Of a stretch of 64,000 nucleotides of DNA, positions 13,783 to 43,577 are shown piece by piece. The position numbers were made by a program, and so were the translations under genes. The stretch is from Treponema sp. (lineage in GTDB: Bacteria > Spirochaetota > Spirochaetia > Treponematales > Breznakiellaceae): positions 71,697 to 135,696 of the forward strand of contig JAITUR010000003.1 in NCBI GenBank assembly GCA_031286205.1. Reading direction: 5' to 3'. Position 1 is the stretch's first letter; every line of letters starts with the position of its first letter. The notes under the pieces are model-generated. The model made no database searches and was not told where the DNA came from. It worked only from the letters and a program-made list of their open reading frames with translations.

Positions 13783-14317
13783 TTGGAATGAATTTTTAGA
13801 GCGCGGACTTCCTTCCGGCAAAGCATCCATGACGGTGGGGGTTTTTGACGGTGTCCACAAAGGGCACAAAGCTTTAATCGAACAAATATTGCCTAAGAAT
13901 GTGCGCAACACCGTGCCTGTGGTAATTACATTTAGGGAACCTGTATACAAGAGCGAAAAAATTCCGTTTATTATTCAATCTTTCGAAGAAAAAGCCGCTG
14001 CTTTAGAGGCACTTGGCGTAGAGGTGTTAATCGTTATTGATTTTACGGAAGATTTTAGCCGCATGACGGGCAGGGAGTTTTTGGAAACATTGCTTGCCCA
14101 TGCGGAGATTGGCTTTTTTGCAGTAGGCTCTAACTTCCGCTGTGGCTGCGGGCTGGACACAGATGCAAAAGCAATCCGCGATTTTTTTACGGATAAGGGT
14201 ATTCCTGTAGAAATTGTGCCGGAAGTTCTTTACAACGGATTTCCAATAAGCTCCAGCAGGATACGAACAGCACTTGCGGAAGGCGATATCGAGTTGGCGG
14301 AAGTATTGATTGGGTAG
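13769..14317 (+). CDS. FMN adenylyltransferase (FAD synthetase) domain protein lacking the riboflavin kinase domain
   Basis: 182 aa. Carries the RibF N-terminal nucleotidyltransferase motifs MTVGVFDGVHKGHKALI, GSNFRCG and SSSRIRTALAEGDIELA. The ORF ends where bifunctional RibF would continue into the kinase domain. 14-nt overlap with the upstream gene. Confidence 0.8.
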   Translation: MQIINWNEFLERGLPSGKASMTVGVFDGVHKGHKALIEQILPKNVRNTVPVVITFREPVYKSEKIPFIIQSFEEKAAALEALGVEVLIVIDFTEDFSRMTGREFLETLLAHAEIGFFAVGSNFRCGCGLDTDAKAIRDFFTDKGIPVEIVPEVLYNGFPISSSRIRTALAEGDIELAEVLIG

Positions 14318-14396
14318 TATTTTTAATTTAATTTGTCTTTATATTTCACCTAACCGTCACCATGCGGCATCAAACTTTTTCCAACAAACACGCACA

Positions 14397-16034
14397 CTAT
14401 AAATTAAGGATCTTTGTTAATTCCATTATCAATTCGGAAATAATTAGATCCCATTCAGGCAGTTCCGGCAGGTGAGCGCCTTCGGCGGGGACTGTTACGG
14501 ACGGATATACTTCCCATGCCGATCTTATAGGGTGTAATGCCGCATCTGTACCTGCATTTCTCCATTGCCGCGCTCCCACACGCCATGCACGGACAAATCC
14601 TTCGTCGGGGATTGTTATTTCTACAGGCAGCCAGCGTTTGCCGTCCAGCTCGATTATTTCAGTGCTGTTTAGGTTCCAGGAATTATCGCCCACTTCGAAT
14701 GCAATATAAATATGTCCGGGTATCGTAATAAAGGCACTTTCTATATCGAGCGCTTCCAGCAGCGAGCAGAACAGAATCGAAAGATACGAACAGTCGCCGC
14801 CGCGATAGTACAAAGCCTGATAAGGAAAACTGACATTATCTAATACAGATTCATCTGCAGAAACATTTACAAAGGATGTAGCGGGAACAACAACATAGCT
14901 AATGCCATACAGGCGCAAAGCCTCGAACAAAGCTGCGGCATAAATAATATTTTCCGGCATATTTGCCAATCTATTATTTCTTGTTTTTAACTTTTTACTT
15001 TCTACTGCGGCGGCAACATATCGCGAAAAATATCGGACTGTAAAATCATTGGGGGAAACAAAAGCCGCAGCCCGCCGGTCATCATCCCACGAAAGGGTGT
15101 TACGGTGAAATATCGGCATTTGTATTGCAGAGCTTGTTTCTTTCCGTGTACCTAAACTGCGGTACTGTATTTGCAAAACACCATTTGCATTTACGGTTTC
15201 TGTTAAATTCATCATGGCTGAATTAAATAAAGCTGTTACAGGAACCTCGGCGCTTTCGCCCGGCGCAAGGTGCGGCAGGACGGCAAAAGTCCAGGGCTGG
15301 CTCATGTAACTGTCCATAAAAAAAGAAAGTTTTACATCGGTAATGGCATTGGGCTCCTCGTTTGTTACTTTTACCATTGCAACAGGATTATTTTCGTACC
15401 ATGCCCACGAAACAGGAAAAATTCTATACTGATCTGTTTTTTCAATTTTGATTCTTGCTCTGCCGCCCATTGTTTCAGACAAGTTAAGCCTTAACCCCAA
15501 AGCTGCGCTAAAAGAAGTTAAAGGTTCTGCGTTCCCTGAGCGTTCGCTAAAAACCCTGTAAGCATAACCGCCGTTTGCAAATAACGAAAAATAAGGAGAC
15601 AAATTGAATTCAAAACCAAGAGCGGACGAAAGCAAAGGATTAACCGCGCTTTTTCCATCTCTGGAATACAGATACACTCCGCCATAAGCCCCTGCGCGGA
15701 AAGCCAAGCGGTCGAGCGTACCCATTTTGGAATAAGGCCGCCACCGCAAAAGCAATCCTGCCCTGCCTTCCAGCAAAGTAAGCGGATCGCCTACTGCAAA
15801 AGGCAAAGATGCAAAAGAACCTTCCGCGCTTATACCAAAATCCAATCTGGCTTTAGTTCTAAACATCCAATCAAAAGAAGCTATTGCTCCTAAACCGGGA
15901 CTGAATTCCTGAATACTTATTGGCGCTTCGACAGCGGGAGCAATGCGCAAAGAAAATTCGCTTTCTGCAAAAAGAAGGAAAGAAGAAACAAAGAATATAA
16001 AAATAATTAATATTTTATTTAACCAAAAACCCAC
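14397..16034 (-). CDS. Secreted protein: N-terminal barrel-like domain, Ig-like middle domain, transglutaminase-like C-terminal domain (Cys-His-Glu retained)
   Basis: 545 aa with a GTG start 3 nt after the cyclase stop. Signal peptide ILIIFIFFVSSFLLFA. Alternating aromatic/Gly beta-strand pattern for ~190 aa. The motif GGDCSYLSILFCSLLEALDIESAFITIPGHIYIAF...WLPVE resembles the transglutaminase-like cysteine protease core. Paralog of 19098..21110. Confidence 0.6.
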   Translation of the reverse strand: MGFWLNKILIIFIFFVSSFLLFAESEFSLRIAPAVEAPISIQEFSPGLGAIASFDWMFRTKARLDFGISAEGSFASLPFAVGDPLTLLEGRAGLLLRWRPYSKMGTLDRLAFRAGAYGGVYLYSRDGKSAVNPLLSSALGFEFNLSPYFSLFANGGYAYRVFSERSGNAEPLTSFSAALGLRLNLSETMGGRARIKIEKTDQYRIFPVSWAWYENNPVAMVKVTNEEPNAITDVKLSFFMDSYMSQPWTFAVLPHLAPGESAEVPVTALFNSAMMNLTETVNANGVLQIQYRSLGTRKETSSAIQMPIFHRNTLSWDDDRRAAAFVSPNDFTVRYFSRYVAAAVESKKLKTRNNRLANMPENIIYAAALFEALRLYGISYVVVPATSFVNVSADESVLDNVSFPYQALYYRGGDCSYLSILFCSLLEALDIESAFITIPGHIYIAFEVGDNSWNLNSTEIIELDGKRWLPVEITIPDEGFVRAWRVGARQWRNAGTDAALHPIRSAWEVYPSVTVPAEGAHLPELPEWDLIISELIMELTKILNL

Positions 16035-16037
16035 TTT

Positions 16038-18623
16038 TTACTTCTCCGTTAAATTTCTTACTGCGTCCCAGTTTAAAGGCGGAGGATTCTGAATACATGC
16101 CTTACAGCGTTCTACATACATTTCCGCAGTCTTGTCGCTTGGATTACTTTTCATTATGGAAAAAAACAGCCTGCCTGCATCATTGAATTTTCTTTCTTCG
16201 TAAAAATCCATCGCTTTTTCCCAATTATCCATTTTGCCATTTTCATCGTTCATTCCTAAAAGTTCGTACAACCTTAGCGGTGTGTCAATTCCGACAACCC
16301 GTACACGGTCTAGGCGGCGCAATAAAAATTCATCGCCTATTTTGTTTCGGGTGTATTCGCTGATTAATATGCCGCCGGTGTGGTATTGATTATTTACACT
16401 TTCCAGGCGCGCGGCAAGATTAACCGCATTGCCCATTATTGTGTAGTCCATCTTATTTTCCGCGCCCATATTTCCTACTACCATATCGCCTGTGTTTATA
16501 CCAATGCGGGTAAATATTTTTACAGGAGACAAACCTTCTTCCAGTACAGTTTTGTTTAATTCTCTTTCTGCCGCCTTCATTGCAATAGCGCTGCGACAGG
16601 CAAGAGCGGCATGGTCTGCACGGAATATAGGCGCACCGTAGAATGCAACTATTGCATCCCCTATGTATTTATCTATTGTACCCATATTTTCCATAACGAT
16701 ATTGCTCATTAATGTCAGATAACGGTTAAGCAATCTTACAAGATGGGCGGGATCTAGTTGTTCGGAAATTGTAGAAAAACCCTTAATGTCGGTAAAGATT
16801 GCTGTCATTTCGCGTTTCTCGCCGCCAAGATTCAGTTTAACAGGATCATTAATAAGCTCGGTTATTATTTCCGGCGCAAGGTAGCGGGAAAAAGCATTGT
16901 GCAAAAAAGCCTTTTCGTGGCTTGTGGTTAAAAATTTACTAATCATTATGGTTAAAAATGATAAAGTTACGGCAGCCAGCGGAACCGCAAGTCCAAGATA
17001 TATTTTACTTACAACAAAGAAAAATCCAAACAAAGCGCATAAAAGAATAATGCCGAATAAACCCGTTAATATTGACAGGTGAGTATCAAGGCGGGTTACA
17101 ATAAAACCTGTTAAAAGCGAATACAGAAAAGCAATAATTGCAGGTATTAACCAGTGAACATCTACAAGAAAATCCCCTGCAAGCAGCATATTGGCAAGAA
17201 CTGCGTAGCTGCCGACATTGGGATAATTTTTTTCAAAGGGTACAATACTATGATCTGTCATTGATGTTGCATCGGAACCGATAACGCTAAAACTGCCGTA
17301 TAAAACCTCGGCATCCTTGCGAATTACCAACAGGCGTTCGAATTGTTCGCGGCAGACATCAAACAACTCCCGCACTAAATCCGCTGTCTCGGGATACTCC
17401 TCTACATCGGCAAGAACGGCATCTTCATAATGACCATTAAGAAAAGTTTTAAATGTATAAAAGAACAACTGCCGCGCAAGAAGCCAATTATCGCTTGCGG
17501 CAAAATTTCCGGCAAGTTCTTTGTTCTTAATTTCCTCGGCTTTAATATAATATTCCCAAGGGGTAAGAAGCTCTGATTCGGCGCCTTCGATGCCATCGTC
17601 CTCGATGCCATCGCCCTCGATGCCGCCGTCCCAATAAAAGAAAAGCCCTAAATCGTTCATAAGGCTGATGTTTTGCGCCAGCACGGGCTCCAGCATAATA
17701 TGCTGAATAAGCGAAACAAGCGACATTGTATTATATTCGTTAAAAGATTTTTTTGGCCACCTGTAAAGCACAGTTCCATCCTGCGCCCGTGGAATTCGCA
17801 AAGTTCCGCCGTCATTTAAATTCAGGGTAATTGCCTTATTTGTTATTGATACTGTGTCATAACCCAGCTTTTCCTGTATTGCCGCAAGCGTTAGTTGTTT
17901 GTAATAATTATCCTGATATTTCCACATAAGATTTACACGCCGCCTAATTCCGTCAGAATCGGGGCCGGCGTTTACAAATCCTGCGCCTCTTGCACGGCTT
18001 AAAAGTTTTTGGATCGACGGTATAACAGCGGCTGACGAAGGCGTTTTTGTATCGCCATAACTAAAAACATCTTGCGCCGCAAGAAATTCCGCTAAATAGC
18101 GATCTGTTTCCTTATTTGTTATTACATCATCGTCTATAAAAACTTCGGGAGGCAGCATGGTAAGCGTAAGCCACGAGGAGCCGCTAAAAGCCAGAGCCTT
18201 GGCAAAGTATTCGTCTACATCCCTGCCCAACAACGGAATTACGGACACCGCAGAATCCAAATCTGCAATACCGGAATTAAGATGTTGAATAAACAAATCC
18301 ACGGCGTACTGGGGGCAAAAGCGTTCTGCGCTTTCGTCAAGATAACTTAAGTCAAAAACAATTGACTCTACTCCAAGTTCTTTTAACAAAATAATAACAT
18401 CGGCCATAACCTCGCGCCTGAACGGAAACCCTCCGGCATATTCCATCGAAGCATCGTCAAGCGTAAGGACAAACACCTTTTCGTTTTCGGCAAGCGGCGG
18501 CAGTAAACGCAAAAACAAATCAAACAGCTTGTTGTCAAGAGAAGTAAAAAACAACAGCGAAGAAACAAAACAAGCCGCAAGAACTGCCAGGAGGAACGGC
18601 TTGTTTCGGTTAACCTTACTCAT
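16038..18623 (-). CDS. CHASE2 sensor domain-containing class III adenylate/guanylate cyclase
   Basis: 861 aa. N-terminal TM helix followed by a CHASE2-like periplasmic region (VFVLTLDDASMEYAGGFPFRREVMADVIILLKELGVESIVFDLSYLDE). Three TM helices. Cyclase core: EMTAIFTDIKGFSTISE, DKYIGDAIVAFYGAP, GINTGDMVVGNMG, YTIMGNAVNLAARLES. TPR-like tail. Confidence 0.85.
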   Translation of the reverse strand: MSKVNRNKPFLLAVLAACFVSSLLFFTSLDNKLFDLFLRLLPPLAENEKVFVLTLDDASMEYAGGFPFRREVMADVIILLKELGVESIVFDLSYLDESAERFCPQYAVDLFIQHLNSGIADLDSAVSVIPLLGRDVDEYFAKALAFSGSSWLTLTMLPPEVFIDDDVITNKETDRYLAEFLAAQDVFSYGDTKTPSSAAVIPSIQKLLSRARGAGFVNAGPDSDGIRRRVNLMWKYQDNYYKQLTLAAIQEKLGYDTVSITNKAITLNLNDGGTLRIPRAQDGTVLYRWPKKSFNEYNTMSLVSLIQHIMLEPVLAQNISLMNDLGLFFYWDGGIEGDGIEDDGIEGAESELLTPWEYYIKAEEIKNKELAGNFAASDNWLLARQLFFYTFKTFLNGHYEDAVLADVEEYPETADLVRELFDVCREQFERLLVIRKDAEVLYGSFSVIGSDATSMTDHSIVPFEKNYPNVGSYAVLANMLLAGDFLVDVHWLIPAIIAFLYSLLTGFIVTRLDTHLSILTGLFGIILLCALFGFFFVVSKIYLGLAVPLAAVTLSFLTIMISKFLTTSHEKAFLHNAFSRYLAPEIITELINDPVKLNLGGEKREMTAIFTDIKGFSTISEQLDPAHLVRLLNRYLTLMSNIVMENMGTIDKYIGDAIVAFYGAPIFRADHAALACRSAIAMKAAERELNKTVLEEGLSPVKIFTRIGINTGDMVVGNMGAENKMDYTIMGNAVNLAARLESVNNQYHTGGILISEYTRNKIGDEFLLRRLDRVRVVGIDTPLRLYELLGMNDENGKMDNWEKAMDFYEERKFNDAGRLFFSIMKSNPSDKTAEMYVERCKACIQNPPPLNWDAVRNLTEK

Positions 18624-19021
18624 TATTCCGCCGCAATATCATTGTCTTCTGCCGCATCGCTTGCCCGCGCGGAAGCGGTTGTAACTTGTCCTGTAGTACG
18701 CGCTGCCGCGCCGGTATCCGTTCGCGCCACATTCCCGTTAATTCGTGTTCCAGAAGCTGTAGAAACTAATTCTCCAACTTTGCCGCTGCGGGCTGCCGGA
18801 ACCGTAAGTGTCCTGCTTCCTTCTCTTACGACAAGAGACGATCCCACGCCGGTATGGATTACAGTATCAGTGCCAAGAGTTTCCCCGGCAACAACATTAA
18901 CCCTTCTGCCGTCAACCTCTTTTTGAACCCGTCCTGTTATGCTCTGCACAGTATAATTTTGTGCCGCGGCAACAGCCGTAACTGCCAATGCAATTACAAT
19001 TACCAAAATGCTTTTCTTCAT
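18623..19021 (-). CDS. Small secreted FecR-domain-like protein
   Basis: 132 aa. Signal peptide ILVIVIALAVTAVAAAQ. FecR-like beta segment VVAGETLGTDTVIHTGVGSSLVVREGSRTLTV. Ala/Thr-rich tail. GGAGA Shine-Dalgarno sequence upstream. The stop overlaps the cyclase ATG (TAATG). Confidence 0.6.
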   Translation of the reverse strand: MKKSILVIVIALAVTAVAAAQNYTVQSITGRVQKEVDGRRVNVVAGETLGTDTVIHTGVGSSLVVREGSRTLTVPAARSGKVGELVSTASGTRINGNVARTDTGAAARTTGQVTTASARASDAAEDNDIAAE

Positions 19022-19065
19022 CTTTAATCTCCGTTTTGCCGCTTAAGCGGCGATGTTAATTGAAA

Positions 19066-19082
19066 TTTCCGCAACGCGGAAA
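19066..19082 (-). terminator. Intra-operon hairpin (possible attenuator or partial terminator)
   Basis: Minus strand reads TTTCCGC-gtt-GCGGAAA followed by TTTCAATT. It lies in the 76-nt gap between the 670-aa gene and the FecR-like gene. A second hairpin, GCCGC-ttaa-GCGGC, is at 19038..19051. Confidence 0.3.
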
Positions 19083-19097
19083 CAAACCCCCTGTGTT

Positions 19098-21110
19098 TTA
19101 TCGAATACTTATTACCCGCTCCAGCCCTCTAATTGCTGCTTTGTTCTGATTGTCATTCTGCAATGCCTGTCTAAACCACCGTTCCGCAGCCGCAAAATCC
19201 CGTTCTATCAAGGCAAGGTTGCCGCGATTGGTCATTGCAGGAACAGACCCCATAGCCGCAGCTATCTCGTACGAATCCTTTCCTAATTTATTATGCCCGG
19301 AACGAATCAGGACTATTCCCAAACGATTATATAAAGAGGCAGTTGAGTTTGTATTCATTTGTCTTCGCATCTCTTGTGCCATTGGATTTAATTCCTGCGC
19401 TATGTACATTCGTACAGCCCGGTTAACCTGATTTACCGCAGCTTCAGTATCTGTTCGTATAACACCTCTGTCCATTTCAGGCAAAGGCGCAGGCGGAAAA
19501 GCAGCCCAGGCAGATTCTACAATAACAAATTCTGCATCCTTGCCTGCTGTAAATGTTTCGTTAAGAACAGCAGTTCCCTGTGTCCATGCCGCTATAAATC
19601 CATCGTTAAAAGCGCTCATGGAAAGAGGCAACCATACTCTGTCGTTAATTATCAATATCCTTTCTATACCGTTAAATAAAGTTTCCGCCGCTGCCTGCCC
19701 TATGCCAAGATTTATGGCAACAAGAAAATCATCTTCCGTTTGAATAAAAGCAGAAGGAATACCTACGCCCTCGAGACAGGATGCAAAGAGCAGGGCAAGG
19801 TCGCGGCTGGAACCTGTTCTGAACAGCAAGGTTTCGGCAGGAAATTGAACATGGGTTTTATCGGTATAGGTTTCTCCCAAACTTATATTGGAAGCTCTTA
19901 AACCTTCCAAAAGCCAAATGGCATACAACATATTTTTGTTGTGCCCTATTACTTGATGCGCGCGGGAAAGCCCTGCAATAAATCTTGCAAAATTAAGTGT
20001 TTCGGGCGAAGTAGGCGAAATAAAAGCCGCATAAGCGGCAGGGTCCAATGGCTGTGCATCTGACGAAATTATTTTATTTCGATTGTGGGTTGCCACAGTT
20101 ACCGCCCTTACTGCTTCCCGCTCCTGTCCCAGAAACCGGTAACGAACAACAACTTCGCCCATAATACGGCCATCGTCGGTAAAACGAAGAATTTCAGACG
20201 AAAAATCCGCTAATAGCGGAAGCTGGACACTGCGTCCCCGCGGAATAATAGAAACAGTACCGCAGGGAAACTCCGAAGTTGTGTAAGGATCGGCGCGGAA
20301 GTACAAGCGAACATTTCGTATCTCGGCATCTTCATTGTTGCGGACAACGGCTGTCCCTATTGCGGTGCTCTGGTAAATCTGCATAAAAGCAGGATACACC
20401 GCCGACGGCTGATCCAGTATTACATGGATTCCTTCGTTACTTCTTTTGCCTGTTTGGAAAGTTATTTGCGCTGTCAATCCCGCGTAATAACCTGAATTCA
20501 TAGATCTAGTATTGCTGTTTATAAAACTTAAACCCCATCCTTCTTCGTACTGCCGCCACCCTGCATTAGCTGCAATAAGAAAGCCCGGCGTAAAACGAAA
20601 GCCAATCTCGCCGCCGCCCCGCCAAAATAATCCCGGCTGCGACAGTATAGACGACTGCGACGATTCATTTATTCCGCTTCTAACAGCAGACTGATACACG
20701 CCTATTGCCCCGTCAATGCGGGTAAAAAAACGCGACAGAGGAAAAAGATATAATCCCAAAGTGCCGCCAAAGGAATAAAAATTAACATTCATTATATTGT
20801 TTCCTTGGAAAGGATTGTCCAGCATACCGCCTTCGACGCCAAAAATAAAACTAAGACCAATGGGATTAGGCCAAGCAGAAAAAAGATCAATTTCAAAACC
20901 AATCTCGCCGCCGCCGCCCATATTGTACATACTTTTTTCGTTAGGAGTGATACTGCCGGAACCCATTGGCATAGAGGCAAAACCTTTAAGGCGAAGAGAA
21001 AATTCCGAAGCAGATAAATTAGAAAAATAAGAATTAAAAAATAAAAAAAGAGCAATGAATAGAAAGAATTTAATTGTCTGTAAACCTTCGGTTCGATGTT
21101 TATTTTTCAT
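19098..21110 (-). CDS. Secreted protein: barrel-like N-terminus, Ig-like domain, degenerate transglutaminase-like domain, C-terminal TPR
   Basis: 670 aa. Signal peptide FFLFIALFLFFNSYFSNLSA, then SEFSLRL (the paralog has SEFSLRI). Same domain order as 14397..16034, but the triad positions read GSSRDLALLF / EDDFLVAI / WLPLSMS. TPR-like tail (NRGNLALIERDFAAAERWFRQALQNDNQNKAAIRGL). Confidence 0.6.
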   Translation of the reverse strand: MKNKHRTEGLQTIKFFLFIALFLFFNSYFSNLSASEFSLRLKGFASMPMGSGSITPNEKSMYNMGGGGEIGFEIDLFSAWPNPIGLSFIFGVEGGMLDNPFQGNNIMNVNFYSFGGTLGLYLFPLSRFFTRIDGAIGVYQSAVRSGINESSQSSILSQPGLFWRGGGEIGFRFTPGFLIAANAGWRQYEEGWGLSFINSNTRSMNSGYYAGLTAQITFQTGKRSNEGIHVILDQPSAVYPAFMQIYQSTAIGTAVVRNNEDAEIRNVRLYFRADPYTTSEFPCGTVSIIPRGRSVQLPLLADFSSEILRFTDDGRIMGEVVVRYRFLGQEREAVRAVTVATHNRNKIISSDAQPLDPAAYAAFISPTSPETLNFARFIAGLSRAHQVIGHNKNMLYAIWLLEGLRASNISLGETYTDKTHVQFPAETLLFRTGSSRDLALLFASCLEGVGIPSAFIQTEDDFLVAINLGIGQAAAETLFNGIERILIINDRVWLPLSMSAFNDGFIAAWTQGTAVLNETFTAGKDAEFVIVESAWAAFPPAPLPEMDRGVIRTDTEAAVNQVNRAVRMYIAQELNPMAQEMRRQMNTNSTASLYNRLGIVLIRSGHNKLGKDSYEIAAAMGSVPAMTNRGNLALIERDFAAAERWFRQALQNDNQNKAAIRGLERVISIR

Positions 21111-21120
21111 TCTTAATTTC

Positions 21121-21861
21121 TCACTTATTTTTATTGTCTTTATTTTTTTGCGCCCTGCGGTAGAAATTGGCCTCTTTGAACACTTCCTGAATATCGTCTA
21201 TAAACACTTTATTGTCTTTTACGGTTATTTTTCCTGTCGTAAAAATTTGGCTATAGAGTTTTTGGCTTTCCGGTTCGGAGATGCCCGCCATGCCTGCAAG
21301 TTCTTTATAACCAAAACTACATTCATAGGAATTCCGCGAGTTTGGGTCTACACTGTTTTTTTCAAGTTGAGTTATTAAAGCATCCCAGATACGACCCACG
21401 GGATTTTCCAGCAAGGTATTGGCAAGCTGCCGGTACAGAAGCCAGATTCGTTCCGACATTATACTCGTTAAACGGACAACCATTTCCGGCATTTTTGTAA
21501 TTAGGTTGGAAAAGTTTGCCTGATTAATTGCCAACAGGGTGCTGTCTTCGTAAATTTCGGCGGTAGCGGCACGAGGTTTATCTTCCAGTATTGCCATCTC
21601 TCCAAAAATATCGCCTTTATTTAAAACCGCAAGCACTACTTCCTGATTGTTAACAATTTTTGTAATTTTTACCGCTCCGCTCTGAATGGTGTACAGGGTA
21701 TTTCCGCTTTCGCCTTCGGCAAAAACCAAATTATCTTTTGGATATTCCTGCACCATTATGTCAGACGAATACACGGGCATTGCAGTCTTAACAAGGGACT
21801 TTATTTTTTCTATTTTATTATTTACCTCGCTTGCATTAACCGCATTTGGGCAGCAGTCCAA
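21121..21861 (-). CDS. Crp/Fnr-family cyclic nucleotide-binding transcriptional regulator
   Basis: 246 aa. cNMP-binding beta-roll (FAEGESGNTLYTIQSGAVKI...GDIFGEMAILEDKPRAATAE). C-terminal HTH-like segment (FGYKELAGMAGISEPESQKLYSQI). Confidence 0.8.
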   Translation of the reverse strand: MDCCPNAVNASEVNNKIEKIKSLVKTAMPVYSSDIMVQEYPKDNLVFAEGESGNTLYTIQSGAVKITKIVNNQEVVLAVLNKGDIFGEMAILEDKPRAATAEIYEDSTLLAINQANFSNLITKMPEMVVRLTSIMSERIWLLYRQLANTLLENPVGRIWDALITQLEKNSVDPNSRNSYECSFGYKELAGMAGISEPESQKLYSQIFTTGKITVKDNKVFIDDIQEVFKEANFYRRAQKNKDNKNK

Positions 21862-21870
21862 ATACCTTTG

Positions 21871-22332
21871 CTACGAATATAAAGCTTGATTAAACTTTTC
21901 GTTCTTTTCGTAAAATTTTCCAATATGATATAAATGAGAAGGGTCGCTCTGCGCGCTTTTTTTTAATATCCGGATGGAAAAAGCTTCGTCCAGGCTCCGC
22001 AGCCGCTGAGAAAACAGCTTAATGGTATTAACAGCGACAGTTGGAGTTTTACGAATTAAATCCCCGTACTGTCTGCGTTCAACTACCATTAGGGCAACAT
22101 TAGTTTTTGCCTGTGCCGATTCAATATAGCTGTGTCCTGTCATTGCAGAAATAAGCCCAAACATTTCTCCTGCACCGACAATATTGCCTTCCTTTCCGGC
22201 TTCCGCCTCGCGGCTTATCTGAACCTTGCCTTCCTTGATGATGTAAAACCGATCTGCATTTGGTTTCCCTTCTACAATGATGTAGGAATCTTTGGAAAAT
22301 TTAAGAATGGAAGGTTGAAAGTTTGTAGACAT
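21871..22332 (-). CDS. Stand-alone cyclic nucleotide-binding domain protein
   Basis: I trimmed this to ATG 22332 (MSTNFQPSILKF...), which overlaps the upstream stop as TAATG. cNMP-binding motifs: IIVEGKPNADRFYIIKEGKVQI and GEMFGLISAMTGHSYIESAQA. Short TPR-like tail. Confidence 0.75.
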   Translation of the reverse strand: MSTNFQPSILKFSKDSYIIVEGKPNADRFYIIKEGKVQISREAEAGKEGNIVGAGEMFGLISAMTGHSYIESAQAKTNVALMVVERRQYGDLIRKTPTVAVNTIKLFSQRLRSLDEAFSIRILKKSAQSDPSHLYHIGKFYEKNEKFNQALYS

Positions 22333-25300
22333 TACTGTCCTCCCATTCCCCGTAGGGTTGGCCACTTATTCCTTGTAACCGGCGTACCTAAATCCCAGAT
22401 TTCCTCATTAAAACCCAAACCCCGATAAAAACTCCTGTCGATTATTTCCCATTTAATAGTCTCGCCATTTCTATTAGTAGCAGTACCTACAGGACTAGGA
22501 GTCGTTGGACTTGGGTTAGTAACATTATAATCGGTATTAAATAACAACAATCTATCTGCCACATAATTTTCCTTCCAGGCTGTACTTGTTGGTTGATTAC
22601 CAGCTATTCTACCTATAAAGTTTTGTGTGGGTGGAGAATTACTTTGCGTACTAACGAATTCTCCAAGAACAACACAAGATTCTATGTCAGAACCAATAAA
22701 TAAATAACTTATCAAACCGGCAACGCTCCCGCCGCCTATATTGCTGGTGCTTCCACTCTTGGCGGTAAATGAACCTACAGAAAAACATCGTTTTATTGTG
22801 GAGTTTGTTGTTGTATTAGAACTACCATCAGAATTTCGCACAGACCCTCCAAATCCACCGGCATCTATGAGTCCTGTGGTTACACCATCAAGTCTATCAA
22901 TCATAATATTACCGGTGGCATAACAATCTTCAATATCAACATCTGCAAAAATTACTCCTACAAAGCCGCCGGCAAAGTAGCGGTAAGATTCTTTTTCGTA
23001 AGATGTTACCGTAATAGATCCGGTCGCATAACATTGTTCTGCTGTACTATTGTTATCCATAGTTCCCGCAAACCCGCCAAATGAATGTCGGGCTTGTTCA
23101 TTTGGAGTGCCGGTTATATTATCTGTCGATCTTATGTCTACCTCGATAGAAGTAGTGCTGTAACACTTTTTTATACCGCTTTTTAGTAAACCGGCAAAGC
23201 CCCCTATCTTTAGTTGTTCCAAATTAGTTGAAGTATTAATTACAGTGCTGGTATCAACTTTTATTAGACTCAAACTTCGGCTGTTTTCAAATTCAGTAAA
23301 ATTGCCGACATCTCCTATAAAACCGCCTATAGTTACGAAATCTCCGGGACCTGTTCTTGTTCTGCTAAAACTAATAAGGCTGCCTGAGTATTCACAATTT
23401 TCAAAAGAAACCTTAGCGCCGGCACTTTCCCCCTCAGAAATGCCGCAAACTCCGCCTATCACAATTTCACCTGTGCCTGTACTTTCAACAGTGATGTCCC
23501 CGCTTGCGACTGTGCCGCGCACTATCATTAATGGAATACCATTGTTTATATTATTTATTATTTTTCCCGCCACTCCGCCAACAATAGTATCCCCGGATGC
23601 AGTATGGGCAGCAGGGATATTAATTGCAGCGCGGCTATTGCAAGAATATATCCCGGTCCCTGTCATTGTGCCAATTATTCCGCCAATAACATGATCGCCG
23701 CTGCCTGTGCCTGTCATGGCAAGGGTTCCTGAAACAACCGAATTATTTATTATACCGCCGCCTGACCCGGCAATACCCCCAAGATTAATGTGCGCGCTCG
23801 AACCAATAGTCATACCCAGGGCGGCATAGCAGTTTGCAATGGTAACGCCGGCACCTGTAGAGCCGGTTATTATCCCGGCATCAATTTCCAGTGAAGAACC
23901 AGAAAGACTTAGCGTACCTGTTCCCTTAACAATAATATTATTAATTCCGGTACTTCCCTGGGTCTGGGCAACAAGACCGCCGATGTATCTGGTATTTGCT
24001 GCCGGAATAGTGATATTTGTATTGTATTCTACTGTCAAGTCACGGATTACCGCATTGCTAACAGAACCAAAAAGCCCCCGATGAGTAGTACCGCCAAAAT
24101 CACCACTGATAATAATCGTATTCCCATTACCGTAAAACTTGCCGCTAAAGCTGCTAATAGGTGTCCAATCGCTAATAGAAACATCATTAATAAGCACATA
24201 TTGCCCGCTTGAATTACTTGCAATGTCGGCAAGCTCAGCAGCTGAGGTAATCTCCACTACTCTGTTAGTAAGGCTTACGCTCATGCCGGGAATATTCCAG
24301 ATCGATATTTCCTGCGGCACAGCATTACCTGCAGCACTATGTGCTACAACTTCTATGTCGTACCTTATTACATTACTTACCGCCTGTCCGCTGCTGACAT
24401 TGGAATTGTTTATCTGGGAAGTGTTTATTGTACGGGTAATACTGCCGGCGCCTGTAACATTTTCTCTAAGTACACCATTAACATAAAAATACGCTCCTTG
24501 CATTGTAGATGGTGTGTTCCAATTTACTGTTATCGTATTTCCTTGTGCGTTACAGTTAACATTAAGATTAGTAACAGGGTCGGTAACCGAAACTATTTTT
24601 TTTATTTTTCCAAGTTCTTCGTCTAATACATTGCCCATACGATCTGTAAACTGTACCCTAACAGTATAAATTGTGTCAAAATTTAAAATGGTATCTAAGG
24701 ATATTAAATAGCTATTGGGATCGCCATAGTCATCATAAATATCAAGCCAGCCGCTGTCGTACACTGCGCCTGGGATTAAAACTTTCCATTGCATATTTTC
24801 TTTATCGTCTCTTGTCCAAGGTTGATTCCATGCAGAAGCGGCGGATATACCCACATCATTCAGGTTATTAAGCCTGTTTAGCGAAACAGATAATTCAGGA
24901 TCTCTTCCAAAAATATAAACTCCAGTATCGGAACCCGTACCCATCGAAGTATAACCTGCGATTGTTGTAATATTTGCCGCAGATCCGGCTGCTATAGGGG
25001 CGGTAATATCCATGACCACCGTAACATAGCGCCCGGCAGCGACAGCTTCATCGACATCCTGTGCATTAATTCCGCTCGAATGCCAGGGAAGGACAACAAG
25101 ACGGATAATTCCGGATTCGCTTGTTTGCATGATATGATTAATCGTAATTGAAGTGGATGAAACATTATGTGTGGTTGGAGTATCAACGGGAGATATTTCA
25201 TTTCCGGTTAAATTGGCATAATGCCGTTCGATAATAGTAACACGATCCGGTGCTGCCGGCGCCTCTACAGGAACTTCTACACTAAAATTAATAACAGCAG

Positions 25301-26267
25301 TTCTTTTATCGCTTTGGTTAAAACGCCTGTCTATTTGAGGATTATTCCATTGCGTTCCTGAATTACGGAAAAAATTCCCGTCTTGTCTTCTTGCCTGAAT
25401 ATTATTAGCTTCGTATATCTTCTGTGCCAAGCTTGCATTTGTATTGTACATTATGCTCTGAACCCCTGCCATTTCAAAACCAAATAAATTTTTAATGCCG
25501 GGGCCTGCATCCACCCTGATACTGGACAACTGCAAATCTGTTGCAGGATATTGCCCGTCATTTTTTATGTTTAAATCCAGCCTATAATCGTTTTCGGTTA
25601 ACGACATAGTAAAATAATTTGAAATATCATCGCTTCCATCTTTGTAAACGACTATAGTATCTCCCAAAATCGCAGTTGCCGGATCTATTTTCATGTTAAA
25701 CCATAAAGAAACTCTTTGATCATAAGGATAAAAGTTTAGGGTTTGTGTAAGCGGCGGGTTGGAACGGGTAATGCGTAATCTTGTGTCACAAAATGGTACA
25801 ATTGTTACCGGCGATGTAATATCTACTGTTACCTTTGTAAAAACTGTCCCTGCCTGAATTTTTTCGATTACAAAAGCAGCTTCATTTTCTGACAGCGATA
25901 ACTCAAGTGCGTCTCCCAGCGGCATTTCCGCTATGTTGATATTTGAATAAACATCGCTTCTAAATGCAAGCCAGCCGGAAAAACCAAATCCGCCGGCAGG
26001 GGTAAACTCAACTTCAAAAGAATATCCTTTGCGTGTTTCGCCGCAGTTGCCTGTACCACGCTGCGGACTGGAACCCCAGCTTAGGGGATAATCAACAGTA
26101 ATTGTCAGCCTTTCTGCATTTGCCCATGCAATCTCGTCATGCAAAGAATCAAGAAAATCCGGATCGACTGCTCCGTTAAAAAGTTCACAAGCAGCAATTA
26201 ACAAAGAGCAAAGTAAAAAAGTAAAAAGCGGGCGAAAAAAAAACTGTCTTTCTTTATTGATTTTCAT
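22332..26267 (-). CDS. Very large surface lipoprotein with Ig/FN3-like N-terminal domains and a GLUG-motif repeat region
   Basis: 1311 aa. Signal peptide with lipobox (CSLLIAAC). About 10 GG[LIVF]xG repeats spaced 25-45 aa apart (GGLVAQ, GGIAGS, GGIIGT, GGVAGK, GGVCGI, GGFIGD, GGFAGL, GGFAGT, GGFVGV, GGFGGS), as in GLUG-motif proteins. Confidence 0.75.
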   Translation of the reverse strand: MKINKERQFFFRPLFTFLLCSLLIAACELFNGAVDPDFLDSLHDEIAWANAERLTITVDYPLSWGSSPQRGTGNCGETRKGYSFEVEFTPAGGFGFSGWLAFRSDVYSNINIAEMPLGDALELSLSENEAAFVIEKIQAGTVFTKVTVDITSPVTIVPFCDTRLRITRSNPPLTQTLNFYPYDQRVSLWFNMKIDPATAILGDTIVVYKDGSDDISNYFTMSLTENDYRLDLNIKNDGQYPATDLQLSSIRVDAGPGIKNLFGFEMAGVQSIMYNTNASLAQKIYEANNIQARRQDGNFFRNSGTQWNNPQIDRRFNQSDKRTAVINFSVEVPVEAPAAPDRVTIIERHYANLTGNEISPVDTPTTHNVSSTSITINHIMQTSESGIIRLVVLPWHSSGINAQDVDEAVAAGRYVTVVMDITAPIAAGSAANITTIAGYTSMGTGSDTGVYIFGRDPELSVSLNRLNNLNDVGISAASAWNQPWTRDDKENMQWKVLIPGAVYDSGWLDIYDDYGDPNSYLISLDTILNFDTIYTVRVQFTDRMGNVLDEELGKIKKIVSVTDPVTNLNVNCNAQGNTITVNWNTPSTMQGAYFYVNGVLRENVTGAGSITRTINTSQINNSNVSSGQAVSNVIRYDIEVVAHSAAGNAVPQEISIWNIPGMSVSLTNRVVEITSAAELADIASNSSGQYVLINDVSISDWTPISSFSGKFYGNGNTIIISGDFGGTTHRGLFGSVSNAVIRDLTVEYNTNITIPAANTRYIGGLVAQTQGSTGINNIIVKGTGTLSLSGSSLEIDAGIITGSTGAGVTIANCYAALGMTIGSSAHINLGGIAGSGGGIINNSVVSGTLAMTGTGSGDHVIGGIIGTMTGTGIYSCNSRAAINIPAAHTASGDTIVGGVAGKIINNINNGIPLMIVRGTVASGDITVESTGTGEIVIGGVCGISEGESAGAKVSFENCEYSGSLISFSRTRTGPGDFVTIGGFIGDVGNFTEFENSRSLSLIKVDTSTVINTSTNLEQLKIGGFAGLLKSGIKKCYSTTSIEVDIRSTDNITGTPNEQARHSFGGFAGTMDNNSTAEQCYATGSITVTSYEKESYRYFAGGFVGVIFADVDIEDCYATGNIMIDRLDGVTTGLIDAGGFGGSVRNSDGSSNTTTNSTIKRCFSVGSFTAKSGSTSNIGGGSVAGLISYLFIGSDIESCVVLGEFVSTQSNSPPTQNFIGRIAGNQPTSTAWKENYVADRLLLFNTDYNVTNPSPTTPSPVGTATNRNGETIKWEIIDRSFYRGLGFNEEIWDLGTPVTRNKWPTLRGMGGQ

Positions 26268-26404
26268 GGCATTCTACCCTCTCTGTTATGACAGCACCTA
26301 TATTTATAGATAATTATAAGTCAGTTAATTATCAAAAACACTGCAATTGCCGTAAACGGTTTTTTTTGCCGTGAATGATTACAGTTCTATGTTATAATAT
26401 CCTT

Positions 26405-27163
26405 ATGAAAGTCATCGTTTGCGATGATAACCCGGAAGACAGATATTATTTGCACTCTCTTATTAACAGATATTTTAAAGAAAATAACTGTCCTATAGAA
26501 ACTTCCGTTTATAAAAACGGCGAATCTCTTATTAAAGATCTTGGTATTCTAAAAACCGAGGATTTAAAAATAGCCTTTCTGGATATTTATATGCCTGGTA
26601 TAAACGGTATTAATGTTGCCAAAAAAATACGGGAAACCGATACTGATATGGCTATTATTCTTACCACTACCAGTCTAGATCATGCGCTGGACGGATATTC
26701 GGTGCAGGCGCTTCAGTATTTAGTAAAACCTGTCAGTTACACGGATGTGGAAAAAGTCCTTAATAGCTGTGCAAAAACATTTGCATCCTCGCTTAGGTTT
26801 ATAGAGGTTATATCCGACAGATTAAAGGTAAAAATTTTGTTAAAAGATATTCTGTATATAGAAATTTATGATCATACCTGCTATATACATACCATGCCGC
26901 AAACTGAAGATATAAAAACCAAGGGTTGTAAAATAATAGAAAGCAGCCGCCTTACGCTTCAGGAAGTTGAACGACATCTTGATAAAACCAACTTTCTAAA
27001 AACTCACCGCAGCTTTATTGTAAATTTACGGTATGTAAAAAATGTTAACGAAAATAATTTTGAACTTACAAGCGGCGCAACTATACCTATCCGCAGAAAC
27101 AACAAATTGGCTGTAAAGCAGGCGTACATGGATTATTTATTTACGCAAACAAGGGATATGTAA
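26405..27163 (+). CDS. LytTR-family (LytR/AlgR/AgrA-type) response regulator
   Basis: I trimmed this to MKVIVCDDNPEDR. Receiver domain (IAFLDIYMPGINGI, YLVKP). C-terminal LytTR-like DNA-binding domain (FLKTHRSFIVNLRYVKNV). Confidence 0.85.
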   Translation: MKVIVCDDNPEDRYYLHSLINRYFKENNCPIETSVYKNGESLIKDLGILKTEDLKIAFLDIYMPGINGINVAKKIRETDTDMAIILTTTSLDHALDGYSVQALQYLVKPVSYTDVEKVLNSCAKTFASSLRFIEVISDRLKVKILLKDILYIEIYDHTCYIHTMPQTEDIKTKGCKIIESSRLTLQEVERHLDKTNFLKTHRSFIVNLRYVKNVNENNFELTSGATIPIRRNNKLAVKQAYMDYLFTQTRDM

Positions 27164-27165
27164 TT

Positions 27166-40942: not shown

Positions 40943-41926
40943 TTAAAACATATAGGAGAACCCGATATAGGGACGGAAAAAACCATTAAACCCTTGTGTC
41001 GAATAATTAAACCCGGTTTCCAGTAAAAATTTGTTAAATAAACGCCAGTAAATTGTCATACCCAAATTAAATTGAACACTTCTTCCGGTTGGCTGCAGGG
41101 GAAAAATCGCTCCTGCTTTTACTCCAAAAGCATTTCTTTCGCCCAGCAGCCATTTTAATACAAGCATATTTATACCCAAATCCGAATTATACCGAATATC
41201 TACTAATGGAGTAGTTAAAGGATCTAAGCTGTATCGACAGTAAACTACTTCTGTTCCAAAATAAATATTCCCGAAAGCCTTGGTAATAAAGCTGGCAAAT
41301 ATATCCATAGACAAAGGGTATAAACCCGAAAAACCTGTTCCGTATAACAGTATAAACGGTGTCCATGCCACACCAATTCTTATTGTAAGGGGCGGAATAT
41401 CTTCAAATACTTCCCAGTCTTTTTTTAGTTCGTCTCTTTCGCTGACGATTTTTTCTACAAATTCTTCTTCGGATCTTTTTTTTGCTATTCTATGTAAAAC
41501 AATTAAGGGTTCCATCAATTCTCTTTTAACCATATCTGAATCCACTGGTTCTGCTTCTACCATTATTTCTTCTGTTTTTTCTTCTATTCTTTCTTCAGCC
41601 TTTTCTTCTACAAGTTCTTCCTCCGAATGTAATGGAACAACTTGAAAATAAATCCAATCCGATTCTTTACTGGGACGATCCAGTACATCGTATGGAATTA
41701 CCAAAAATCTGTAAAAACCGGGATACAAAGAAACATTTAAAGATTGCACTGTTGTCGATTCCACCAAATAAGGGGCAAACTTGCCGGCTTCCATTCTTTG
41801 AAGAATAATCTCGTAACGGAAAGCGTTTTCTACATTCCAGGAAAGTCTTTGTTCAAGGCGTTGAGCGAAAACCGGGAAGGCAAGAAAAATTAAAATGATA
41901 ATTAAAAAGCGCTGTTTATTCATCAT
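40943..41926 (-). CDS. Outer-membrane beta-barrel-like protein with an N-terminal FN3-like domain and an acidic coiled linker
   Basis: 327 aa. Signal peptide FLIIILIFLAFPVFAQ. FN3-like module LSWNVENAFRYEIILQ...GFYRFLVIPY. Glu-rich linker. The C-terminal ~150 aa have an alternating pattern ending in GFSYMF, with the terminal aromatic typical of OM barrels. Confidence 0.55.
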   Translation of the reverse strand: MMNKQRFLIIILIFLAFPVFAQRLEQRLSWNVENAFRYEIILQRMEAGKFAPYLVESTTVQSLNVSLYPGFYRFLVIPYDVLDRPSKESDWIYFQVVPLHSEEELVEEKAEERIEEKTEEIMVEAEPVDSDMVKRELMEPLIVLHRIAKKRSEEEFVEKIVSERDELKKDWEVFEDIPPLTIRIGVAWTPFILLYGTGFSGLYPLSMDIFASFITKAFGNIYFGTEVVYCRYSLDPLTTPLVDIRYNSDLGINMLVLKWLLGERNAFGVKAGAIFPLQPTGRSVQFNLGMTIYWRLFNKFLLETGFNYSTQGFNGFFRPYIGFSYMF

Positions 41927-43574
41927 GCTGTATCCCCAGATCTTCTACCTGTAATTCAATTTCTCCGGGTACTTGGAAGTCAAGAATAAAAGTACTTTCT
42001 CCTATTGTTCCCCGCCGTGCAATCGTATTTCCGGAGCCTGTTCTTACAGCTTCTACCTGCCAGATGAATGTTCCTCTGTCTAACACCCTAAGATTTTCCA
42101 TGGAATAATTAGTTCTTGTTATTGGATCTGTCTGCACTATCTGCCGTCTGCCCGCAGGAGTTTGCTGGTATAAAGTAAAAATATAAGCTGTCGCCTGAGG
42201 TACGCTAGACCAGCTAAAATTGATTCTTCTAAGATTCTGTAATTCATTTGTCTCATATCTTGTTCCCCTTACAGGCAACATATTCTGAGGAGCTGCAAGA
42301 CGCGGGGGCGGTGCTGGGGGTGCTGGGGGCGGAGGAGGAGGAGGCGGTTCAGGCGGCGGTGGCGCGCTGGCAGGCACTGCCTCGGGGGTTGATGACGCCG
42401 CGGGAACAGTTGTCGATATTGTCGGCGGAGGAGGCGTTAACGCAAGCACTTCCGGCGGCGCTGCCGCTATCGCAACAGCAATTTCCTCTTTAGTAAAATG
42501 AGCCGAAACTATTTCCGGCGGTAATTCCGGCGGCAGATTAGCAGGGGTTGGGGCTTCCAATACCAGCCAGTCCATTATACTTTCAGATTCACTTTGCACA
42601 TTAGACCGGACTTCCGTTTCCGGAGCTGCTGTTGCTGCAACTGCAACAATTTTTTCTAACCGGAAAAAATTAACACTAGAATAAACACTTTGCGCGTTAA
42701 AAATAGAAGGATAAACAGGCAAGACACGCCAGAACCATACTCCTTCTTCCAAACCTGTTTCGGTTAAAAAAGAAGCGAATGTATTTTTATTTACCATTAG
42801 ATCGGAAAAATCCGGTGTCTTACATACTTCTATCTTGTAAGAAACAGCATCTTCCAATTCTTCCCACTGAAAATTAATTACAGGGGTTCCTTCCTGGTAC
42901 CTGAATATACTGTTTACTGCGGGACTTATCAATTTAGGTTGTCTAACAGAAATACTTGCTGTACTTACCTTGTCGGTACTGGCAGCCCATTCAACGCTTT
43001 GTACTGTTTGTATAGATACCTCTCTTGGCGTATCCCTTCTATCTTCTGCATTATTTGTATTTGCCGGGTTTGCCGTACTTACAACAGGGCTTATTGCTGC
43101 GGTTAATACACTACCCGGCTGGGCAGATACATTCCTGCCGTCAATTTCCAGTTCTATTTTTAGATTCTCGTCTGTTGCAACAACAGAGATAGTACCTTCA
43201 TCCAAAATAATTTGCAGTGTTTCGCCGTCGGCAGACAGCATTATTCGTATAAGCGTATTTTCTTCCAAAAAAATATCGGCTTCCTGTATTTTTAATGTAG
43301 CTGCGGAAACATCGGCTACACGGATTAAATCTCCAATGTAAACAGGCGATTCATTTGTAAGCCTATCCCATACAACCCGGTTAGAAAAACGCCGCTGAAC
43401 CGTATTTTTTCTTATTACAACAGTTCCAACAGGCTCTACATTTTGCAAATGCACTGTTTGCATAAGATCGTGCCAAAACAGATTTACACATACAACAGAA
43501 ATGGAAAGAAACAATAAAGTAATAAAAATATCGATAAAACCGAATTTTTTAAAACTGGAATTTCTGCCGCCCAT
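41916..43574 (-). CDS. Membrane-anchored FecR-domain-like protein with FN3-like modules and a long proline-rich spacer
   Basis: 552 aa. N-terminal TM helix. FecR-like segment GTVVIRKNTVQ...PVYIGDLIRVADVSAATLKIQEADIFLEENTLIRI. Two FN3-like modules (FQWEELEDAVSYKIEV..., FSWSSVPQATAYIFTLY...). Pro-rich region including PPPPEPPPPPPPPAPPAPPP. Confidence 0.65.
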   Translation of the reverse strand: MGGRNSSFKKFGFIDIFITLLFLSISVVCVNLFWHDLMQTVHLQNVEPVGTVVIRKNTVQRRFSNRVVWDRLTNESPVYIGDLIRVADVSAATLKIQEADIFLEENTLIRIMLSADGETLQIILDEGTISVVATDENLKIELEIDGRNVSAQPGSVLTAAISPVVSTANPANTNNAEDRRDTPREVSIQTVQSVEWAASTDKVSTASISVRQPKLISPAVNSIFRYQEGTPVINFQWEELEDAVSYKIEVCKTPDFSDLMVNKNTFASFLTETGLEEGVWFWRVLPVYPSIFNAQSVYSSVNFFRLEKIVAVAATAAPETEVRSNVQSESESIMDWLVLEAPTPANLPPELPPEIVSAHFTKEEIAVAIAAAPPEVLALTPPPPTISTTVPAASSTPEAVPASAPPPPEPPPPPPPPAPPAPPPRLAAPQNMLPVRGTRYETNELQNLRRINFSWSSVPQATAYIFTLYQQTPAGRRQIVQTDPITRTNYSMENLRVLDRGTFIWQVEAVRTGSGNTIARRGTIGESTFILDFQVPGEIELQVEDLGIQHDE

Positions 43575-43577
43575 ATC

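Follow-up and report, generated by a model that had tools for sequence, protein, structure and literature searches.

The 64,000-nucleotide (nt) window analysed here, a stretch of a Treponema sp. contig, carries on its minus strand an unbroken series of co-directional reading frames that runs from 26267 down to 14397 and includes the gene for a CHASE2 receptor adenylate cyclase of 861 amino acids (aa). We propose that this block is a lineage-specific accessory module of the cyclase, in which a secreted 132-aa protein would serve as co-sensor and the envelope would set the synthesis of cyclic AMP (cAMP); we put the chance that this proposal is right at somewhat better than even. The genes for the 132-aa protein and the cyclase stand next to each other, between the genes for two related secreted proteins of 670 and 545 aa. 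Further upstream, the block holds a gene with tandem cyclic-nucleotide-binding (CNB) domains and the gene for a 1311-aa predicted lipoprotein.

The first-pass annotation of this DNA had called the 861-aa protein a CHASE2 sensor joined to a class III cyclase, and that call is solid. The CHASE2 profile (PF05226) gave 93.9 bits (cut-off 26.3, E 1.6e-26) over residues 15-313 of the protein, in a match that spans only profile positions 4-183 of 257. The protein also matched Guanylate_cyc (PF00211) with 76.3 bits (E 3e-21), well above the Pfam cut-off. A hydropathy scan placed one transmembrane (TM) segment at residues 11-29 and three more within residues 486-567. This is the canonical CHASE2 topology, in which the periplasmic domain lies between a single TM helix and a group of three.

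Class III cyclases carry two metal-binding Asp residues, an adenine-specifying Lys together with a Thr (the class IIIb pattern), and a transition-state Asn and Arg. The best PDB matches of the catalytic domain were bacterial adenylate cyclases, for example Pseudomonas aeruginosa CyaB (E 2.4e-36); CyaC was also aligned. The segments FTDIKGF, KYIGDA and MDYTIMGNAVNLAARLES of the 861-aa protein align residue for residue with CyaB, and its metal, Lys/Thr, Asn and Arg positions line up with those of the bacterial adenylate cyclases, as expected from the earlier description of the motifs as intact. The roles given to single residues come from established knowledge of class III enzymes. As judged by these alignments, the 861-aa protein is shown to be a class III adenylate cyclase whose catalytic positions are intact. 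In its periplasmic region, an acidic repeat of the DGIEG type (GGIEGDGIEDDGIEGAE) occupies residues ~335-350, just past residue 313, where the Pfam CHASE2 match stops.

The neighbourhood of the cyclase was compared in 15 loci anchored on the 132-aa protein, which correspond to about a dozen distinct Treponema/Spirochaetaceae contigs, and a scan of a genome collection with an alignment of close relatives yielded 11 loci in Treponema/Spirochaetaceae metagenome-assembled genomes (MAGs). Most of the loci are on contigs of JGI and ENA metagenomes or in Treponema MAGs; the names of homologous proteins point to Treponema, and the source contigs are taken to be mostly of termite-gut origin. The full order 670-132-cyclase-545 was found in L003/4, L011, L012, L014 and L015, with protein identities of 52-72%, and partial versions were found at contig ends in L005, L007, L009 and L010. 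The conservation of gene order, which had been put forward as a check on the annotation, is therefore borne out, since the order recurs in independent Treponema MAG contigs more than chance would allow.

The CHASE2 cyclase was the most frequent neighbour of the 132-aa family, being present in 11 of the 12 distinct close loci and in distant loci as well. Distant members of the family (24-40% identity) adjoin CHASE2 cyclases in L017-L020 and L023/24. We conclude that the gene association is real and that the pair formed by the 132-type gene and the CHASE2 cyclase gene is its most constant element. In most loci, the two paralogs of the 670 and 545 types flank this pair. Among the loci examined, the module has so far been seen only in Treponema and other spirochaetes.

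The 1311-type gene also recurs near the module. A homolog immediately precedes the 670-type gene in L011 and L015 and the 132-type gene in L001/L008; in L007 it follows the cyclase gene. The predicted lipoprotein is a more faithful neighbour of the module than the cyclic-nucleotide receptor gene discussed below. Its N-terminus (...LLIAAC) ends in a lipobox-like motif, and its Pfam matches, weak ones to fn3 and GLUG, are all sub-threshold.

The secreted partner proteins

The 132-aa protein has a signal peptide. The hydropathy scan found no further hydrophobic or TM segment in it, hence no membrane anchor. An AlphaFold2 model with a predicted local distance difference test (pLDDT) score of 71 shows a small beta-sandwich at about residues 22-81 and a disordered stretch behind it. 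When 1.84 billion representatives were searched with a profile, 400 clusters at 50% identity were gathered, and the listed members are mostly ~125-150 aa long. Besides the beta domain, the family shares a conserved tail, TASxRAS...D..(W/I)..E, at its extreme C-terminal end. The source names seen for family members were all Treponema sp.

The first-pass annotation had described this protein as secreted and FecR-like. Its secretion is supported by the signal peptide, and the search with profile hidden Markov models did not yield the FecR assignment. Pfam FecR (PF04773) was not matched by the 132-aa protein even at E<=10, nor at E<=1 by any sequence of a 96-member alignment that adds 95 diverse relatives to it. 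As positive controls, SMc02177 and a Methylosinus protein gave 33.9 and 44.5 bits, respectively. No Pfam or NCBIfam family was matched by the 132-aa protein; a sub-threshold DUF7354 match over the beta domain was seen for a few members of the 96-sequence alignment. A search of PDB sequences with the family profile gave nothing meaningful. Foldseek of the model against PDB gave nothing significant and no FecR or PupR structure, the best match being a 76-aa cell-surface anchoring domain (5ix9, E 0.24).

A weak profile likeness was found with hhalign. The 132-aa family matched the SMc02177 alignment with a probability of 59.7% and E 8.8e-5 over 72 columns, pairing family residues 24-94 with SMc02177 residues 34-105. 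The same register was recovered with SMc02177 alone and with the Methylosinus FecR-family protein. The match is limited to the N-terminal half of these FecR-family proteins, which are encoded beside CHASE2 proteins; the Pfam FecR domain of SMc02177 covers residues 65-157. On these profile comparisons, the term FecR-like would be a weak lead for the 132-aa protein, and we do not place it in the FecR family.

The 545-aa and 670-aa proteins are paralogous, with 27% identity over ~400 residues (E 6e-33). The AlphaFold2 model of the 545-aa protein (pLDDT 79) consists of a signal helix, eight long strands at residues 25-184, a beta-sandwich at 195-308 and an alpha/beta domain at 319-545. The strands are modelled with a pLDDT of ~90, and Foldseek matched them to NspA, Ail, OmpA-TM, OmpX and OmpW (E 3.5e-6 to 3e-4, target TM-scores 0.5-0.65); a weak Pfam match to OMP_b-brl supplements the barrel call. 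The rest of the model matched the transglutaminases TG3, factor XIII and TG2 (E 8e-4 to 3e-3, probability 0.95-0.99). These data uphold the earlier description of two barrel/transglutaminase-like paralogs bracketing the cyclase. In Pfam, Transglut_core (PF01841) was sub-threshold for the 545-aa protein (17.3 versus 23 bits) and was not matched by the 670-aa protein, for which sub-threshold Pfam hits point to C-terminal tetratricopeptide repeats (TPR) at residues 596-656.

Three residues of the 545-aa protein, Cys415, His441 and Glu472, are the same in all of 32 aligned 545-type orthologs, and also in nine locus-derived orthologs and one distant ortholog. All three were lost in each of the ten 670-type proteins examined, where S/T/N, D/N/E and S/A take their places. 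Because the triad is kept in the 545-type and lost in the 670-type proteins, the two are, on sequence grounds, a predicted enzyme/pseudoenzyme pair. The 545-aa protein resembles bacterial transglutaminase-like cysteine proteases in having a papain-like Cys-His-acid triad on a transglutaminase fold; it differs from them in its sub-threshold Transglut_core score and in having Glu as the third triad residue. With animal transglutaminases it shares a beta-sandwich ahead of the transglutaminase fold.

OmpA-family proteins offer a further likeness, in that an N-terminal eight-strand barrel is followed by periplasmic domains. About a tenth of the listed 545-type orthologs (e.g. P0123, P0132, P0136 and P0140) are 630-730 aa long and add a C-terminal OmpA peptidoglycan-binding domain (PF00691). 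Since an eight-strand barrel leaves both chain ends in the periplasm, and given these OmpA_C fusions, we infer that the large transglutaminase-like and TPR domains of the 545-aa and 670-aa proteins would face the periplasm rather than the outside. We know, without having searched for it, of no described fusion of an OmpA-like barrel to a transglutaminase fold. NCBIfam gave a partial match, at E 1e-13 and far short of the cut-off, between residues 214-452 of the 545-aa protein, in its beta-sandwich/transglutaminase region, and the first 240 residues of ProA, an anti-phage protein.

The tandem cyclic-nucleotide-binding gene

Between the 1311-aa and 670-aa genes, the list of open reading frames (ORFs) gives frames of 153 and 246 aa, which the first-pass annotation had taken for two cyclic nucleoside monophosphate (cNMP) receptors, a stand-alone binding protein and a Crp-like regulator. 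The two frames are in phase and are divided by one TAG at 21871-21873, in the place of a conserved Tyr codon. Relatives read ...YSYQ(Q/R)YL... at this point, the window reads ...ALYS*QRYLDCCPNA..., and the closest relative reads ...AVYSYQRYLECCPNA.... To place the gene among its relatives, 80 metagenome loci from varied habitats (L025-L104) were anchored on the 246-aa frame. In 75 of them, a relative of the 153-aa frame immediately precedes the anchor on the same strand; the other five are cut by a contig end or have no separate hit. In 68 of the 80, both parts form a single ORF of at least 376 aa (about 401-439 aa, typically ~405). The remaining 12 have a contig end inside the gene or an ORF shortened by the start-codon rule, and none was seen split.

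Judged by its relatives, the apparent pair of cNMP genes is a single gene broken by an in-frame TAG. The TTG-initiated 246-aa frame was rejected as an independent Crp gene because the relatives read straight through the junction. The gene could be a pseudogene, or the TAG could be specific to the strain or stem from the assembly. For annotation from an ORF list, a nonsense codon of this kind is a trap, as it makes one gene look like two cNMP-receptor genes.

Each half of the gene has a Pfam cNMP_binding domain, one of them at E 3.3e-22, and the native protein of L046 has two cNMP_binding stretches (E 8e-45). For the second half, a full-length alignment with Mycobacterium tuberculosis Crp was obtained (residues 26-230 with Crp 20-225), the DNA-binding region included. 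Pfam HTH_Crp_2 was not matched in the 246-aa frame even at E<=5. Of the Crp-like regulator described earlier, the full-length likeness to Crp is thus retained, and neither a Pfam helix-turn-helix match nor a stand-alone gene was found. In the sequence, the phosphate-binding segment of the second CNB domain (FGEMA...PRAATA) is close to canonical, and that of the first lacks the usual Arg. Family members share, in the first CNB domain, a non-canonical H-x-[YH]-I-E-[ST]-A where PR[ST]A is usual. The family with tandem CNB domains and a Crp-like region is widespread and well conserved (30-76% identity), with members in several JGI sample series and in ENA activated-sludge and marine-sediment contigs; no characterised member was found.

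None of the 15 loci anchored on the 132-aa protein contains the tandem-CNB gene, and the 670, 132 and 545 genes were found in none of the 80 tandem-CNB loci. There is no room for the tandem-CNB gene in L011 and L015, because the 1311-type and 670-type genes there lie 167-247 nt apart. In L046, a segment of a cyclase like the 861-aa one (33% identity) lies ~2 kb upstream of the tandem-CNB gene. None of the 95 related loci examined keeps the tandem-CNB gene next to the module. The gene stands beside a HAMP-type cyclase resembling the 703-aa one of this window in L033, L041, L051 and L093. A gene like that for the window's 552-aa protein also follows in L041, and in L097 the tandem-CNB gene comes directly after a gene like that for the 327-aa protein. 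These data point to a recurrent but loose tie to the HAMP cyclase operon. This pattern fits a general role of the gene product as cAMP receptor rather than membership of the CHASE2 module. A complete unit from sensor to receiver, with two receptors, was the most striking part of the original claim, and this part fails.

Proposed mechanism, alternatives and related systems

CHASE2 sensors with neighbouring partner genes have been reported in other bacteria. In Sinorhizobium meliloti, the CHASE2 cyclases CyaD1, CyaD2 and CyaK answer plant signals via the outer-membrane barrel NsrA and act via the Crp-like Clr (PMC7529298, PMC13001267). The cyaD1 locus reads clr-cyaD1-FecR(SMc02177)-SMc02178-cpdA phosphodiesterase (PMC5498481). 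The order clr-cyaD1-SMc02177-SMc02178 was also seen in our sequence analysis, SMc02178 being Sel1/TPR-like; a tblastn search of pSymB with CyaD1 (E<=1e-30) did not recover the cyaK locus. A Campylobacterota cluster combines a CHASE2 cyclase, a FecR-domain outer-membrane protein, a TPR protein and a phosphodiesterase (PMC9239204), and a Burkholderia/Pseudomonas operon joins a LysM-FecR (COG4254) protein to a CHASE2 histidine kinase (PMC5192318). On Gemmobacter and Methylosinus plasmids, we found Crp and CHASE2 genes, and CHASE2 cyclase and FecR genes, side by side. These precedents from S. meliloti, Campylobacterota and Burkholderia mean that the general logic is known and partly shown by experiment. 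The first-pass remark that no experimental account of such a unit was known is therefore mistaken in substance, as the S. meliloti NsrA–CyaK/CyaD1–Clr route is a described trans-envelope cAMP pathway.

The likeness to NsrA–CyaK–Clr is one of architecture only: both systems have an inner-membrane CHASE2 class III cyclase and an outer-membrane beta-barrel. In S. meliloti, cyclase activity depends on the barrel; the Treponema barrels are encoded beside the cyclase. NsrA is a single large barrel protein; Treponema has eight-strand barrels fused to a transglutaminase fold, as a putative enzyme/pseudoenzyme pair. At the cyaD1 locus, a small secreted FecR-family protein and a Sel1/TPR-like repeat protein are encoded beside the cyclase, with the Crp-like receptor next door. 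The Treponema partner, in contrast, is ~130 aa long, does not match Pfam FecR and has a distinctive conserved acidic tail; its block has no phosphodiesterase gene, and the adjacency of the Crp-like gene is not conserved.

The Campylobacterota and Burkholderia pairs resemble the Treponema one in having a periplasmic or outer-membrane partner directly beside the CHASE2 sensor, often with a TPR protein and whatever the output domain. Their partners match Pfam FecR, unlike the 132-aa protein, and their clusters lack transglutaminase-fold barrels; the betaproteobacterial output is a histidine kinase, as opposed to a cyclase in Treponema. What is new here is the set of components, namely a ~130-aa partner family with a conserved tail and no Pfam model, and a barrel–transglutaminase enzyme/pseudoenzyme pair. 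A literature search found no account of either in Treponema.

We suggest that the 132-aa protein acts as a periplasmic co-sensor that would bind the CHASE2 domain. Its analogues would be the small FecR-family proteins and FecR-domain outer-membrane proteins whose genes adjoin those of proteobacterial CHASE2 sensors. The conserved acidic tail of the 132-aa protein could dock on, or be processed by, the TPR pseudoenzyme, the putatively active transglutaminase-like paralog or both. cAMP synthesis would then follow the condition of the outer membrane or periplasm, and the cAMP would be sensed by cyclic-nucleotide-binding proteins whose genes may lie anywhere in the genome; the interrupted tandem-CNB gene would be one candidate, not a conserved part of the module. 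Sensing of the envelope or periplasm with cAMP as output is the most reasonable reading of the block. A more specific version, in which the ~130-aa family is the missing co-sensor of CHASE2 domains in spirochaetes and its tail is cleaved, cross-linked or docked by the transglutaminase-fold pair so as to switch the cyclase, we consider distinctly unlikely as it stands; if true, it would be a regulated-processing route to cAMP without a described counterpart.

To our knowledge, no structurally defined ligand is known for CHASE2, a widespread extracytoplasmic sensor domain. The papers cited here give no structural account of its input, to which the only functional clues have so far been partner proteins in a few proteobacteria. 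The Treponema module adds a compact and strongly conserved partner set, which gives a concrete handle on CHASE2 sensing, and it reveals two unannotated families, the 132-aa family with no Pfam model and the barrel–transglutaminase fusion.

Several points weigh against the co-sensor proposal. Physical interaction of the module proteins is a prediction from their genes. Co-transcription is deduced from short gaps and overlaps, since promoter and terminator scans were uninformative. The FecR link is weak, with no Pfam hit, an hhalign probability of about 60% and no FecR or PupR match in Foldseek; in a control, hhalign against an unrelated family reached E 1.5e-3 from signal peptides alone. L006 has 670-132-545 without a cyclase, and in L022 two 132-type genes lie beside 670-like, 545-like and giant Big_5 genes with no cyclase within 8 kb. 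Therefore, the 132-type and transglutaminase-fold proteins may have a function of their own.

These cyclase-free loci would be explained if the block were an envelope-building or surface-protein operon, in which the lipoprotein, the 132-aa protein and the two transglutaminase-fold proteins make up a structural or enzymatic unit, one that might for instance cross-link, trim or anchor a surface or periplasmic protein, and the cyclase is an optional monitor. One MAG, WRLP01, holds both L006 and the separate locus L008, which reads 1311-like-132-cyclase without 670 or 545; parts of the module may thus work in trans, or the non-cyclase genes may act independently. Giant Ig-like Big_5 proteins, which range from ~1085 aa to more than 3500 aa, are encoded in L017-L019 and L022; in L017-L019, two tandem 132-type copies follow directly downstream of the giant, which in L017 exceeds 3500 aa. 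The invariant catalytic triad of the 545 family, which points to a real enzymatic activity, and the OmpA peptidoglycan-binding fusions of its orthologs would suit such an operon. It does not account for the CHASE2 cyclase as the most frequent neighbour of the 132-aa family in close and distant loci alike, nor for the translational coupling of the cyclase to the 132-aa gene in the window. We regard an envelope operon as the main alternative and as rather unlikely.

The co-sensor proposal must also be set against Fec-type cell-surface signalling, the trans-envelope cAMP unit of the first-pass annotation, with exposed barrels, a FecR-like relay, the cyclase as transmitter and two co-encoded cNMP receivers. 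The gene order and short gaps fit such a scheme, the 132-aa protein is weakly similar to the N-terminal half of FecR-family proteins, and NsrA/CyaK of S. meliloti provide a case in which an outer-membrane protein acts on a CHASE2 cyclase (PMC7529298). The block shares with Escherichia coli FecA/FecR/FecI only the general idea that an outer-membrane event is relayed to an inner-membrane protein by periplasmic contact. However, searches of Pfam and NCBIfam found no TonB-dependent receptor, STN signalling domain, membrane-spanning anti-sigma domain or extracytoplasmic function (ECF) sigma factor in any of the seven block proteins, the Pfam FecR model was unmatched, and the output is cAMP. The barrels are OmpA-like with eight strands, and their large domains are predicted to be periplasmic. 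For its receiver part, now a single interrupted gene that is missing from the module's loci and has no module in its own, the Fec-type reading is largely refuted. A conserved module of CHASE2 cyclase, secreted and outer-membrane proteins survives from that claim; the Fec components, the surface exposure and the two receivers are not supported, and we find the full scheme quite improbable.

That the genes are chance or shared-orientation neighbours without a functional link, on which the promoter and terminator scans support neither side, deserves hardly any credence, as it is already contradicted by synteny kept at 52-72% identity over many independent contigs, by 132-cyclase pairing kept at 24-40% and by the stop/start overlaps.

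Layout of the block and the second cyclase locus

The features of the block and of the second cyclase locus are listed in Table 1. The six minus-strand ORFs of the first-pass annotation, from 22332 to 14397, are all present in the ORF list, and its block of six genes was incomplete. The flanks of the co-directional series are plus-strand genes at 13769-14317 and 26375-27163; therefore the 1311-aa gene also belongs in the block, which extends to 26267.

Table 1. Features of the minus-strand block and of the separate cyclase operon in the window.
Feature	Coordinates	Strand	Remarks
1311-aa predicted lipoprotein	22332..26267	-	First gene of the block; stop overlaps next start (TAATG)
Tandem cyclic-nucleotide-binding-domain gene, Crp-like C-terminal region	21121..22332	-	Split by in-frame TAG at 21871-21873
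153-aa frame	21871-22332	-	ORF list
246-aa frame	21121-21861	-	ORF list
670-aa secreted paralog	19098..21110	-	Predicted barrel region, beta-sandwich, transglutaminase-like fold without triad, C-terminal TPR
132-aa secreted protein	18623..19021	-	Signal peptide, small beta-sandwich, disordered linker, kept C-terminal tail
861-aa receptor adenylate cyclase	16038..18623	-	TM1, periplasmic CHASE2, three TM helices, class III cyclase domain, short C-terminal helical region
545-aa secreted paralog	14397..16034	-	Predicted 8-strand barrel 25-184, beta-sandwich 195-308, transglutaminase-like core 319-545
AT-rich divergent intergenic region	26268..26374	.	Likely promoter region of the block
Separate cyclase operon: 703-aa HAMP + class III cyclase, 552-aa and 327-aa proteins	40943..45689	-	Pfam, hydropathy

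The TAATG stop/start overlaps reported at 18623 and 22332 were both confirmed, the former directly in the DNA and the latter from the ORF coordinates. The overlap at 22332 links the 153-aa frame to the upstream 1311-aa gene. The other intergenic gaps in the block measure 3 to 76 nt. Scans for consensus promoters and terminators gave counts equal to the shuffled expectation and were uninformative for the block. In the divergent region, a promoter-like match at 26356-26328 is not above chance, and a GAGAGGG resembling a ribosome-binding site precedes the ATG. No Rfam family was matched in a scan of 13500-27500. Only one gap of the block is sizeable, the 76 nt at 19022-19097 that separate the 670-aa gene from the 132-aa gene. 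It contains a perfect GC-rich hairpin (GCCGCTTAAGCGGC core) at 19036-19053, without a T-run, which may be a processing or attenuation site.

The locus that the first-pass annotation had described as a second, differently built copy proved to be a different operon with a HAMP cyclase, without CHASE2 and without any detectable FecR-like or 132-like protein. The 703-aa cyclase (43578-45689) has two TM segments and matches HAMP and Guanylate_cyc only in Pfam; CHASE2 was not found by Pfam in any protein of this locus. The 552-aa protein (41916-43574) is membrane-anchored. It gave no FecR signal in Pfam, either whole or as its isolated N-terminal region, or in NCBIfam, and hhalign gave no meaningful match with the 132-aa family or with the SMc02177 family; it was rejected as a FecR-like protein on these results. 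The secreted 327-aa protein ends in ...GFSYMF, an aromatic terminal residue of the kind that we take to be usual in outer-membrane beta-barrel proteins, which makes it a candidate barrel. The 552-aa and 703-aa proteins both end in acidic tails with a hydrophobic residue near the terminal Glu (…EDLGIQHDE and …DLLDISLDE, respectively), a superficial likeness to the tail of the 132-aa family.

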